A stretch of 63,893 nt of DNA, the filler included, from Ionaspis alba (lineage: Eukaryota), in the NCBI GenBank assembly GCA_964255285.1. It is 4 parts of 4 records of this genome, joined end to end, with 100 filler letters (N's around TTAATTAATTAA, not from the genome) between each part and the next. Parts side by side here need not be neighbours in the genome. Positions count along the whole stretch, not along the records: positions 16,032 to 31,939 come from CAXUUL010000359.1; 3 more parts are not named here. The stretch is one strand, 5' to 3'. A program made the position numbers and the translations under genes. The notes under the pieces are model-generated. The model saw nothing but the letters and a program-made list of their open reading frames with translations. It did not search any database and was not told the origin of the DNA. Shown here piece after piece: positions 14,045 through 48,017 of the stretch (position 1 is its first letter; every line of letters starts with the position of its first letter).

Positions 14045-15653
14045 ATGTTATTCACTACATTCACAGTGGCCAGCTTTGCTGCCGTGGTGCTCGCACACGC
14101 GGGGCATGAAGAGCAGAAGCCAATTGCGGGGCCGCATAAAAGTCTTTGGTATAATGCTTTGCCTGGAGATGGGGGGACTCAGGTATGCTATTCAATGCGT
14201 GAGGCATCAAGGAGAGCATTATGCTGACACGTATAGGCGGACTCGGTTTTCTCTGGTATATCGACATTTGGCCGGTTGCCTTACTTTCCTTGCTTAGCAA
14301 GTGACGAAGAGAAATACGACATTGCATTCATTGGTAAGCTAGGAGTCTGTGGGCATCCAATTGCTATTGAAGAATTGAAGATGTGCAATCGAGCATTGCT
14401 GATGCCAACGGTACCTAGGTGCTCCATTTGACACCGGCACTTCCTACCGTCCTGGAGCTCGGTTTGGACCTAATGGTATCCGGCAAGGTAGCCGCCGTCT
14501 CAATCTATAGTACGTAATGTTCAGACACTGGCTTACATCTGTTTGGAAATTTCAAGGCTCACGCAAGGTCCGATTCAGTGGCGGCTACAATGTCCCTCTC
14601 GATGCGAATCCCTTCAACAGCTGGGCCACCGTGTTGGACTGTGGAGATATCCCAGTGACTTCGTGAGTCGATGTGGAAAATGCTGTTGAAGCTTATCCCA
14701 CTCACTCAAATATAGGTACGACAATGCATTTGCCATTCAGCAGATCGAAGATGGCCACAGCAGCATCTTGTCAAGGGCACCTGCAACCAATGCCGACAAG
14801 AAGGGACCATCGATCAAGGGCAAGACTCTCCCGAGAGTGATCACTCTGGGCGGTGACCATACTATCACTCTGCCACTACTTCGAAGCGTCGTCAGTGCTT
14901 ATGGGCCCATCAGCGTCATTCACTTCGACTCTCATCTGTGAGCTCCCCATCTGCTTTGTTCATTGACGACCGTTGATTCCTTGCTCCAGCGACACGTGGA
15001 AACCTAAGGTCTTTGGCGGCGCTCCTTCAAAACAAGCGTCCATCAATCACGGTACCTACTTCTACCACGCCCACGAAGAAGGTCTCCTTGCCAACGACTC
15101 CAATATCCATGCTGGTATCCGTACCACACTGTCTGGGCTCTCAGATTACGATAACGATGGCTACTGCGGCTTCGAGATTGTAGAGGCAAGGGAGATTGAT
15201 ACCATTGGTATGGCGGGCATCATCAAGAAGATCAAGGATAGAGTCGGTACTACAAAACCTGTTTATATCAGTATTGATATCGATACTCTGGATCCTGCTT
15301 GTAAGTCTTATCGCTCTTCTATTCTGCATCATTCTGCTCCGTTATCCCGTGAACCGGAATTAATTCCGCCGCCCTGAACAGTTGCACCTGCCACAGGCAC
15401 GCCAGAAACCGGCGGCTGGTCCACGCGCGAACTTCGCACCATCATTCGCGGACTCGAGGGTATTAATTTCGTTGCTGCCGACATTGTTGAGGTCGCTCCT
15501 GCTTATGATACCAATGCCGAGCATACGACTATGGCGGCTGCAGACGTATTATACGAGGTCATGACTTTGATGGTAAAGAAAGGGCCATTGAGTGCCATGA
15601 TGGAGAAGCAGGAGGAGGTCAAGAAGGTGGAGGGGACGCAGGAGAAGGCATAG
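14045..15653 (+). CDS. Agmatinase/guanidino-acid hydrolase (ureohydrolase family), multi-exon, N-terminal signal peptide
   Basis: [47 protein letters not shown](F)[21 protein letters not shown] metal-binding motifs. Confidence 0.93.
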
Positions 15654-15931: not shown

Positions 15932-16031
15932 NNNNNNNNNNNNNNNNNNNNNNNNNNNNNNNNNNNNNNNNNNNNTTAATTAATTAANNNNNNNNNNNNN
16001 NNNNNNNNNNNNNNNNNNNNNNNNNNNNNNN
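15932..16031. other. Artificial scaffold linker N44-TTAATTAATTAA-N44
   Basis: Six-frame stop spacer flanked by 44 N on each side. Confidence 0.98.
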
Positions 16032-16219
16032 CTCTGCCCTGTATTTGGAAGGGATTGCGAAAAGGCTCTTTGCTCATCACTGAAACGTGCAGCCAACGAT
16101 TTTCGATATTAGCTCAATTCAATTAATGCGAACTTCAAGAATAGAAACATCATAGTGCAGCTTTTGATATAAATATAAGCTAGGGAGGAAGCGAAGAATA
16201 TAATGAGGGCCGATTGTTC

Positions 16220-17313
16220 TTAAACACCATCTCCCTTCAACTTGACCCATCGATTTTGGAGCTCCTCAACATTATCCGCGCTCTCGGCAATTCGCTCTTG
16301 ACCAATAGCATTGGGTACAGAGCTCAACTCACCAAGTTTCAGGGCGTTGTTGTATAAATCTTCGATATTGCTCCGCACAAGCTCGAAGTTGTCTTGATCA
16401 AGTTGGCTTTGGTCGAATTTGCAGACTCCGCCATTATCCGCGTTCAATTTGACAACGTTCTCGTGATCACCTGGCAATCCAATCCGTGAACTCTCTCTTG
16501 GGACAATCTGAGAGTTAGTGCAATCAGCATGTCGACGGAGCTCTATACAACATCAAAATTAACTCACATTGTCAAAAGCGCCCCAGAACGAGACGATATC
16601 GTAATTGAGTAACTGATGCCTCCAATGTTCGTGCATGATATCCGTGAAGATGCTCCCCTCCTTCAAGGTCTCCAGCACATCATCACCATTCTGAAAACCC
16701 AAATCGTTAGCAATCTTTGCCACGACACCTCCTATTTTGACCAACACCTTATTCCCTCCATTATGCGGCGTGCCAAAAAATGCTACACCTTTAGTCGCAT
16801 TCTTGATGTGTGTATATTTTGGGTTATTATGGGCATTGATCAGGGCCTGCTTGATCAATAGCCCGCCAAGGCTGTGGCCTAGAAGGAGGAGTGGTCTGTA
16901 CTCCGCATTCTTTCTCTTCACTCTTACCGCTTCCAGGAATTCATTCGCCTTGTCGATGAAAGTGCTTCGGTCGGCTCCATAGACTGCTGTGGAACTATAC
17001 TCATAAAGAAAGATACGTGACTCGCTGACGTATTGGGGGAGGTCGTCGCGGAGCCAGAGACGCCCTTTTGGTCCGGCAGGTTTGCGCCATGTATCCCATG
17101 CATGATCCGCATCCTTCTTACTCCGAGGATTCAGACCGTGAACGGCAATGATGCTGAATAGTGTCAATGGCATCAGGTGAAAGGATATACAACCTACTCG
17201 ACTTTTGCGACATGGCTTGTTGCCCTATCGACATTGGGATCTGGATACAATTGTCTCAAAGGCTGAACGCTTGGATTAGTGGAGGCTAAATACAGCTTTG
17301 GTGAACTGACCAT
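16220..17313 (-). CDS. SesB/SERAC1-like alpha/beta-hydrolase (fungal NLR effector-type domain); introns 17154-17197 and 16508-16567
   Basis: DIIAVHGLN, WLRDDLP, RIFLYEY, RPLLLLGHSLGGLLIKQAL, FFGTPHNG, IVPRESS, xADxxxVCKF. Confidence 0.88.
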
Positions 17314-17366
17314 TGTACATGACCGCTTTTCGGTTGAGCTGAATGGCAAACAGGTGAATATATTCT

Positions 17367-17399
17367 ATATACATATATACACATATACACATATATATA
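17367..17399. repeat. (TA/CA)n microsatellite in the SesB-like gene promoter
   Basis: tatatacatatatacacatatacacatatatata. Confidence 0.7.
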
Positions 17400-17769
17400 A
17401 GCTCGTGATATTTTGGGCCAGTGTGGAAAAGACGAGGAACCTTGGGCTGTGCTATAGTTGCCTTAGACCCAGGCAGAGGAGGGGATCAACATTGATCCGT
17501 AAGCCTTCCCCCAGAAAGTTTCTGAAGTAGTTTCTGAGTCCTCGAGGCAACGTGATAGCATCTTCGGACTAGCCTTCCAATTCTGCGACTTTCGCTAGCC
17601 CACGAAGATCAACTGACTGACTCCTATCTATCTCTAGGCTACCTCCAAAAGCATTCAGAGACATGTGGGGGTGCATGAGACACACAAATGCCACTGGACA
17701 AGGAAAGCGGGAACAGATCATTACACCATTGGCACACGAGGGGCTCCTCCGATCACAATGAGTCAAATT

Positions 17770-18241
17770 TCACTCTTTCTCTGCTAAGGCAATCCCCTTC
17801 TCCTTCGCTGTCGCCCTCAACGTCGTCAAGAACTGTGCATGATCCTTCGAGCAAAGAGCCAGATCCTCCCTGGTCATCAACACGTTCAGACTATCAGCAG
17901 TGTCATTTCTGCCTAGGACTATAGGATATGATAGACTATTGTGCTTGATATAATCAACGATCTATTCCGTAGAGTCCTATTAGCCAGGACCTATACATCC
18001 ATGGAATATTGACGGGACATACTCCTTGATCTAATTCATCCCGATGGAGCTGCTGAACATCAGCTCCAATCTTCTTCTTCGTAGCCGACCATTCTGCTGA
18101 TTCCGTGAGATGTAGACCAGCATGTGTAAGATCGCATGCAGCGCAGGAAGTCGCCGGTTTGGTTAATTTATTGTAGGCATATTTGAGCTTGCCGCGGAGA
18201 GTGCTATCTGCATTGTAGATAATGTAAATGATTGGTGCCAT
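17770..18241 (-). CDS. Small CxxC hypothetical protein (136 aa); intron 17962-18022
   Basis: GTATGT...CTAAT...TAG intron gives a complete ORF with IYNADS, CAACDLTH, W, LHRDE, YPIVL. Confidence 0.82.
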
Positions 18242-31939: not shown

Positions 31940-32039
31940 NNNNNNNNNNNNNNNNNNNNNNNNNNNNNNNNNNNNNNNNNNNNTTAATTAATTAANNNNN
32001 NNNNNNNNNNNNNNNNNNNNNNNNNNNNNNNNNNNNNNN
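31940..32039. other. Artificial scaffold linker N44-TTAATTAATTAA-N44
   Basis: Same structure as 15932-16031. Confidence 0.98.
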
Positions 32040-47917: not shown

Positions 47918-48017
47918 NNNNNNNNNNNNNNNNNNNNNNNNNNNNNNNNNNNNNNNNNNNNTTAATTAATTAANNNNNNNNNNNNNNNNNNNNNNNNNNN
48001 NNNNNNNNNNNNNNNNN
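47918..48017. other. Artificial scaffold linker N44-TTAATTAATTAA-N44
   Basis: Same structure as the other two linkers. Confidence 0.98.

Follow-up and report, generated by a model that had tools for sequence, protein, structure and literature searches.

The stretch of DNA analysed here (the window; 63,893 nucleotides (nt) of Ionaspis alba, assembly GCA_964255285.1, comprising four contigs joined end to end) carries on its minus strand a gene with a sesB-like hydrolase domain, which probably represents the 5' part of a NOD-like receptor (NLR) gene of the NB-ARC type, as judged from its homologs. The gene begins at ATG 17313 with a 44-nt first intron, a small correction to the earlier account, and runs off the end of contig CAXUUL010000359.1 at 16032, 48 nt into exon 4. 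The ORF of the window is likewise recorded in the database (P0286) on a contig of 15908 nt. Exon 1 (17198..17313, minus strand like all parts of the gene) reads MVSSPKLY...PLRQLYPDPN...AKV plus 2 nt and matches the N-terminus of the homolog P0001 in tblastn. Across intron 1 (17154..17197; GTAGGT...TTCAG), its frame joins that of exon 2 as ...KVD|IIAVH with zero stops, and homologs read ...KVDIIAVHGLNP over the same junction. Exon 2 (16568..17153) encodes the core of the alpha/beta-hydrolase (sesB-like) domain, including the GxSxG nucleophile elbow of this fold, present as GHSLGG at 16879-16862. It is followed by intron 2 (16508..16567; 60 nt, GTGAGT...CACTAAC...CTCAG) and exon 3 (16333..16507), which encodes the end of the hydrolase domain (IVPRESS...NADNGGVCKF...DLYNNALKL + G). 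Together, exons 1-3 provide 292 stop-free codons with one base left over, placing the next boundary in phase 1.

The element of interest is intron 3, which would span 253 nt, compared with 44 and 60 nt for introns 1 and 2. Its 5' splice site, GTGAGT (16327..16332, phase 1), lies directly after ...NNALKL + G. The first 111 nt of the intron continue the frame of exon 3 as a tailpiece open reading frame (ORF) (16220..16332; GELSS...LQNRWVKLKGDGV) that closes at TAA 16222-16220, and the AT-rich remainder (16080..16219) contains a branch point, GCTAAT (16113-16108), and an acceptor, TTTCAG (16085-16080). Two readings are therefore available at this junction: (i) in the spliced reading, G|TG encodes V, followed by MSKEPFRNPFQIQGR, which makes up the first 48 nt of exon 4 (16032..16079, cut by the contig end) and is open to base 16032, or (ii) in the retained reading, the protein continues as GELSSVPNAIGQERIAESADNVEELQNRWVKLKGDGV for 37 codons and ends at the tailpiece stop with a total length of 329 amino acids (aa). 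Donor, branch point, acceptor, stop codon, and both readings were found on the minus strand exactly where the first-pass annotation had placed them, and its assignment of the domain to the SesB-like NLR effector type agrees with the relatives of the gene, most of which are NB-ARC/TPR or NACHT/ANK NLRs.

A search with exon 2 for longer relatives gave 152 proteins; the 120 matches listed are mostly NB-ARC/TPR or NACHT/ankyrin proteins of filamentous ascomycetes, with a domain identity of 60-79%. Exon 2 is 84% identical, gap-free, to a shorter protein, P0258. The Pfam search with exon 2 gave alpha/beta-hydrolase matches below the cut-off only (Hydrolase_4, DUF726, DUF676, and PGAP1), and the AlphaFold model of P0001 (mean predicted local distance difference test score (pLDDT) of 81) was matched by Foldseek in the PDB to thioesterases, monoacylglycerol lipases, PGAP1, and generic alpha/beta hydrolases. 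On the basis of its 60-79% identity to the N-terminal domains of NLRs named DUF676 or NB-ARC/NACHT, the domain is assigned to the sesB-like alpha/beta-hydrolase group, an N-terminal effector class known from fungal NLRs (Dyrka et al. 2014, PMC4986451; PMC12258605).

The 5' splice site of intron 3 and the sequence behind it

A metagenome scan with a 7-sequence alignment recovered 53 homologous loci; the junction was alignable in 43 rows (counting the window), which were reduced to 37 non-redundant loci by merging copies at least 95% alike. At the homologous phase-1 site, 30 of the 37 loci have GTRAGT and 4 more have GTRAG[C/A], while the 3 loci without the donor continue directly into other linkers. 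Such recurrence goes beyond what chance would give. The codon that holds the donor is invariably NGT (GGT 14, TGT 11, AGT 8, and CGT 1), and the codon after it is GAG in 26 loci and AAG in 8, which is a charge swap between Glu and Lys at the protein level and a purine swap in the splice consensus. A Leu next after the donor is encoded by TTR in 18 of 20 cases, compared with 30% of the exon-3 Leu codons of the same loci, and a Ser in this place by TCN in 5 of 5 cases, compared with 25% in exon 3. This codon usage (NGT, GAG/AAG, TTR, and TCN) shows that the constraint at the donor acts on the nucleotides of the 5' splice site and not on amino acids, and GTGAGT at 16332 is, by this comparison, the normal module-boundary donor of the family, without cryptic character. 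A second donor at the tail end (N|GTGTTT or GTATTT, phase 1), which would give a tail-including NLR, was also considered and rejected as a conserved site: it is confined to the window, L003, L004, and L007, departs from the consensus at +5, and is missing from the 12 remaining intact tails.

Where sufficient sequence is available behind the donor, a branch-point-like CTRAY site and an acceptor open a long frame in most loci, the intron mostly measuring 185-255 nt. Pfam searches of 26 such downstream ORFs assigned 14 to NPHP3_N, NACHT, NB-ARC, or AAA and 1 to DUF7779, with 3 matching ankyrin only and 8 matching nothing; 4 of these 8 are short, yet include the start of a P-loop, a NACHT leader, or a stretch that matches NB-ARC proteins in tblastn. 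Sequence of the nucleotide-binding and oligomerization domain (NOD) type follows on the same strand, about 100-250 nt past the tail stop, in all 14 intact-tail loci with downstream sequence (L003, L004, L007, L009, L011, L014, L017, L018, L034, L038, L039, L042, L043, and L050), and the exon-4 frames of intact-tail loci have no ATG of their own. Across loci L001-L050, the hydrolase module and donor, often together with the tail, precede NACHT/NPHP3_N, NB-ARC, NACHT-HEAT, and ankyrin-only partners. In the window itself, tblastn with the long homologs detected no NOD domain on the three remaining contigs.

The same junction can be followed in annotated proteins. Among 48 listed homologs with an anchored junction, 45 join ALKx straight to the NOD linker and 3 carry the tail, namely the short P0001 and two Colletotrichum models with the tail read through in frame. 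In the latter two (P0003 and P0011), the tail runs in frame into the NB-ARC domain, and in P0004, from a third species, the same stretch is spliced out. This arrangement would be exitron-like, and both of its forms would be full NLRs. As for the window, its exon 4 contains PFRNPFQIQGR where NB-ARC-type homologs have P-[FLY]-x-x-N-x-x-F-x-G-R; the spacing differs, and the resemblance to a pre-NB-ARC linker is no more than suggestive.

The tailpiece and the short gene models that end in it

The tailpiece appears to behave like coding sequence, yet its coding signal is weak. Among 32 non-redundant donor-bearing loci, frame 0 is stop-free over codons 4-29 in 19, compared with 9 and 8 for the other two frames; the count was limited to these codons since GTGAGTTGA creates stops in both alternative frames and so biases the open-frame length measured from the donor. 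In the stretch that follows, the three frames are alike (13, 9, and 7 stop-free). Base composition changes at the same point: the mean guanine-plus-cytosine (GC) content falls from 0.487 in exon 3 and 0.486 in the tail to 0.382 over the remaining intron and returns to 0.499 in exon 4, with the tail above the post-tail intron in 14 of 14 loci and at 0.49 versus 0.37 in the window. All 16 intact tails end in the motif L-x-x-[RQ]-[LFWM]-x-x-L, the first Leu of which uses all six Leu codons across these tails. The stop lies 5 codons past the motif in 10 of the 16 and 4-6 codons past it in 13, and the stop codon varies (TAA 6, TGA 6, and TAG 4). Between the window and L003, L004, L007, and L009, identity is 0.66-0.69 in the tail and 0.61 in the post-tail intron, for a shuffled baseline of 0.60, and the exon-3 third positions of the compared loci are 37-49% identical to those of the window.

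We propose that the tail motif is a helix-like, amphipathic element of the form L-x-x-R-[LFWM]-x-x-L-K-G. AlphaFold models the tail end of P0001 as a short, low-confidence helix (pLDDT 58-67), without information on docking. Exon 3 plus tail matched no Pfam family at E <= 1 and no amyloid (HET-s, sigma, or PP) profile. A model from Rhexocercosporidium (P0261) has the conserved donor and an acceptor inside the tail, so that the variable middle is removed and the terminal motif kept (ALKI|DDDKELHARFAKLKEDHV); this is a possible third splice form in some species. An equivalent short intron in the tail of the window (as in ALKI|DDDKELHARF...) was rejected as implausible, as the in-frame AG sites would give just 36 or 102 nt.

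Proteins that stop at the tail are present in public databases. With exon 3 plus tail as the query, a search of 1.84 billion cluster representatives gave 185 matches, and at least 17 representatives contain the tail in full and stop at most a few residues beyond it. When P0258 was the query, many proteins 280-325 aa in length were listed from named genomes, 35 of which were inspected; in 16 of them the terminal motif lies 3-12 residues from the end, and 15 of the 16 are NCBI gene models with introns 1 and 2 spliced out and a protein that terminates in the tail. The short models come from Colletotrichum, Coniochaeta, Fusarium/Neocosmospora, Pseudogymnoascus, Arthroderma, Bathelium, Microdochium, Rhexocercosporidium, and a Xylariaceae species. 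Both kinds of gene model, the short one and the one that joins the hydrolase domain to the NOD, are thus found in annotation. P0258 (313 aa, from a 1111-nt contig) is 74% identical to exon 3 plus tail and colinear with exons 1, 2, and 3 plus the tail, lacking introns 1 and 2 and ending at the tail stop. This would be the shape expected of a complementary DNA of a retained transcript, and we treat it as a lead only. Intron-less, tail-bearing contigs (P0258, P0260, P0128, and P0132) were set aside as proof of a retained messenger RNA (mRNA), as some family members have no intron 2 anyway (L020, L022, L032/33, and L036/37); an intron at this site is present in 15 of 15 tail-bearing metagenome loci with upstream sequence, as read from tblastn gaps.

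Logan contigs from sequencing runs X1, X2, X12, and X13 are colinear with the DNA, intron 2 included; they show no joints and are uninformative on expression. For the branch point, ACTAAT is found in most X1 contigs and ACTAAC in X12. The gene is represented in X1 by two or three variants that differ by about 10% (e.g., 21 differences in 221 nt), which could be paralogs or mixed strains, and this divergence may explain the assembly break inside the gene.

Around the gene, a TA/TG-rich simple repeat (17358-17401) lies just upstream of the start codon, and a small two-exon ORF (17770-18240, minus strand; MAPIIYIIYNADSTLRGKLKYAY... / ...IVDYIKHNSLSYPIVLGRNDTADS...) is found farther upstream on the same strand. 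The preceding contig carries an intron-containing gene (14237-15653, plus strand) that, from its motifs, we take to be of the agmatinase/arginase type and that is unrelated to the present finding. The four contigs of the window (15931, 15908, 15878, and 15876 nt) stand in descending size, as in a size-sorted assembly, and their interiors hold five 100-N gaps. They are separated by artificial linkers at 15932-16031, 31940-32039, and 47918-48017 (N44-TTAATTAATTAA-N44, with stops in all frames), and no feature is readable across these joints.

A receptor, a free effector, or a relic

The first-pass annotation had proposed that a cryptic intron lets this locus encode both a short and a long product. 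The two-product idea itself is well supported by comparison, with donor (GTRAGT in 30/37 and GTRAG[C/A] in 4/37 loci), NOD frames, and tail (motif in 16/16 intact tails) with its stop all conserved in the homologs tested. The word cryptic does not hold, as the intron is the standard module-boundary intron of the family, with the donor in 34 of 37 loci, and the linker pattern quoted at the time (F-x-x-P-F-x-L-x-G) gives way to the pattern of the homologs described above, which the window peptide fits with shifted spacing only.

In the reading that we favour, to which we give a probability of roughly 45%, the window contains the 5' portion of a sesB-like NLR gene whose boundary intron carries a tailpiece, and the transcript is either spliced into a receptor or retained to give an effector-only protein. 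Intron 3 would lie between the lipase-like effector module at the N-terminus and the nucleotide-binding module, and splicing of GTGAGT at 16332 to the acceptor at 16080 would produce the receptor. The first 111 nt of the intron would act as the tailpiece of a composite exon, with exon-like composition, a conserved helix motif, and a stop. If the intron is kept, or if the transcript is polyadenylated in the AT-rich stretch past the stop, a 329-aa effector-only protein with its own conserved C-terminus would result. A short and a long product from one locus are reasonable because the retained reading is a conserved tail with its stop at a conserved position. Both mRNAs would then be made, the present copy would continue into an NB-ARC domain, and the short protein would function as a free effector, a decoy, or a receptor regulator. 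Intron 3 and the long product are very probably real, and we see about an even chance, if not quite that, that the family makes the short product and keeps it under selection. A tentative extension of this reading, which we rate a little below it, covers several ascomycete classes: the boundary intron would be a two-way switch between the receptor and a free lipase-like protein with a tailpiece helix, the free protein serving as effector, decoy, or regulator of its own receptor, and the same intron would be the joint at which sesB recombines with NACHT, NB-ARC, and ankyrin-only partners. In this respect, the phase-1 boundary intron looks like the joint of a sesB-like module shuffling between NLR classes.

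Several observations weigh against the dual-output reading. No RNA run is among the sequencing runs listed for this stretch, and a retained transcript with its long 3' part might be degraded instead of translated. Protein-level constraint on the tail is weak: the median ratio of nonsynonymous to synonymous rates (omega; Nei-Gojobori method, NG86) is 0.56 in the tail (22 pairs) versus 0.08 in exon 3 (10 pairs), and the pooled ratios of nonsynonymous to synonymous proportions (pN/pS) for frames 0, 1, and 2 are 0.68, 0.86, and 1.09 in the tail versus 0.25, 1.05, and 1.68 in exon 3, in an alignment that was guided by the frame-0 protein and therefore favours frame 0. Differences per codon position over the tail (0.55, 0.48, and 0.60) are uninformative. 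In 13 of 32 loci there is a stop within tail codons 4-29, and five have a stop directly after the donor. In X12, the contig of a close relative (<90% identity) has a 1-nt deletion in the tail at 16289 and a C for the acceptor G at 16080, where a new AG 13 nt upstream would give another frame; these changes speak against a conserved tail frame and against this particular acceptor in the nearest relative, although the depth of 4.45 leaves room for sequencing errors. Finally, exon 4 is visible for 16 codons only, with no P-loop in view before the contig ends and a second frame also open there, and the relaxed regular expression for the pre-NB-ARC linker was written post hoc, after the peptide was known; it matches a single site in 27 of the 118 long homologs, invariably right ahead of the NB-ARC domain, and gives 2 matches in the 127,782 six-frame residues of the window, one of which is the exon-4 peptide.

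Much of this is what would be expected if intron 3 were simply a constitutive NLR intron and the tail a relic in slow decay, such as the former C-terminus of an ancestral, stand-alone sesB-type gene that was fused to a NOD gene by splicing, with the short database proteins being read-through by gene finders. This is the principal competitor and a serious one, although we think it somewhat improbable. It accounts for the conserved donor, acceptor, and NOD frames, for a tail that is skipped in 45 of 48 anchored long models and broken in 13 of 32 loci, for omega values of about 0.56-0.68, close to relaxed, and for the frameshifting tail deletion in the X12 relative; moreover, many database fragments also read through intron 2 (e.g., P0001 and P0002), so the ORF callers had ignored introns there. 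A relic would not, however, be expected to keep exon-like GC content in 14 of 14 loci, or a motif written in all six Leu codons with a stop 4-6 codons on in 13 of 16 tails despite a varying stop codon, and these tail features persist even though the exon-3 third positions of the loci share only 37-49% identity with those of the window. Likewise, 15 eukaryote-style models splice introns 1 and 2 yet end in the tail.

Two further explanations, both of which we consider unlikely, concern the window copy more directly. The gene could be a stand-alone one, encoding a 329-aa free sesB-like hydrolase that ends at TAA 16220, with GTGAGT unused and the frame past 16080 due to chance or to a separate gene that begins at ATG 16077. 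Such an architecture is precisely that of many annotated proteins of about 300 aa, the downstream frame has 16 codons only, starts with V-M, and has a second open frame beside it, and the acceptor AG is lost in the X12 relative. Yet NOD sequence follows about 100-250 nt past the stop in 14 of 14 intact-tail loci, the donor is under nucleotide-level selection, and the exon-4 peptide has a pre-NB-ARC-like motif. A separate downstream gene from ATG 16077 was in turn rejected: the homologous exon-4 frames have no ATG, and the spacer from stop to ATG is merely 143 nt, presumably too short for a separate promoter. In the other explanation, no more probable, the family architecture holds and this copy is an inactive, degenerating paralog (catalytic His lost, diverged copies, and a contig break inside the gene). 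Codon 16435-16433 is AAT (Asn) where relatives have His (...NADHSGVCKF...), and of 54 rows, 52 have His here, the exceptions being the window (Asn) and L035 (Tyr). The Ser-Asp-His catalytic triad is thus incomplete in the window copy, the triad role of this His being taken from position and conservation, not from structural measurement. The codon is CAT (His) in the X12 relative and in a minor X1 variant. Because Asn replaces a near-invariant His, the copy is possibly inactive; it may be catalytically dead or decaying, which also counts against dual output at this locus. The X1 variants about 10% apart and the rapid turnover of fungal NLR families (Dyrka et al. 2014, PMC4986451) point in the same direction. 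Decay is harder to reconcile with exons 1-3 being free of stops and frameshifts over 292 codons, with three intact donors and acceptors, with an intact tail that keeps its motif, and with an exon 2 that aligns without gaps to its nearest relative at 84% identity; a catalytically dead domain could, besides, serve as an adaptor or decoy.

Known systems and what the boundary intron would mean

The closest known counterparts are the sesB-like/NB-ARC/TPR and sesB-like/NACHT/ANK NLRs (P0006, P0010, P0012, and P0009), which resemble the window gene in a hydrolase domain 60-79% identical to it, a junction of the form ...DLYxxALKx, and a linker of the pre-NB-ARC type. The window gene differs from them in having Asn for the His at the catalytic position and in being known past the junction for 16 codons only. 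Pa_2_10340 of Podospora anserina is listed among such NLRs (Dyrka et al. 2014, PMC4986451). SesB of the sesA/sesB/het-eN cluster is likewise a short lipase-like protein with a C-terminal extension that is functionally tied to an NLR. Its extension is described as an amyloid (sigma) signalling motif, and the NLR as the product of a separate neighbouring gene. The window gene is unlike SesB in both respects, as its tail is of the helix type without a Pfam match and the NOD of its homologs lies in the same transcription unit, behind the conserved donor. The sesA/sesB/het-eN cluster was the subject of work by Daskalov et al. in 2012 (cited in PMC4986451).

Alternative transcripts of the plant TIR-NLR genes N and RPS4 encode truncated proteins. 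As in N and RPS4, an intron left in place after the N-terminal signalling domain would give a truncated product with the effector domain only, the retained reading of the window meeting an in-frame stop after 37 codons. The differences are that the present gene is fungal, that its domain is lipase-like and not TIR, that the retained stretch has a conserved motif and stop, and that the truncated product is a prediction from sequence. Both plant genes are among the validated cases of NLR splicing (PMC13021637). In layout, the window intron is also like the composite terminal exon of the immunoglobulin mu gene, with no homology implied and intronic polyadenylation being hypothetical here. In the switch between the secreted and membrane forms of immunoglobulin mu, a 5' splice site is embedded in exon-like sequence, with a tailpiece, a stop, and an AT-rich stretch behind it, and its use removes the tailpiece and connects to the exons downstream. 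For fungal NLRs, the only alternative splicing mentioned in the literature surveyed here is microexon shuffling in truffle (a 2012 study cited in PMC4986451 and PMC13449251). The truffle case is unlike the window in that its microexons diversify the repeat (sensor) end, without an effector-only isoform through a boundary intron. In the same literature, most of it on fungal NLRs, neither a conserved boundary intron with an in-frame tail nor an effector-only isoform is reported, and the term 'intron retention' is absent.

Fungal NLRs are numerous, and to our knowledge their regulation is largely unknown. If the dual-output reading is true, the boundary intron would add a layer of post-transcriptional control to fungal cell-death and immunity receptors, parallel to the isoforms of plant TIR-NLRs. 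It would also explain why public annotation contains proteins of about 300 aa named 'DUF676' beside long NLRs with the same N-terminal domain, and the comparison flags a recurrent annotation problem, namely gene models that are split or truncated at the junction between effector and NOD. A boundary intron of the same phase throughout would, in addition, offer a concrete mechanism for the unusual promiscuity of the sesB-like module.

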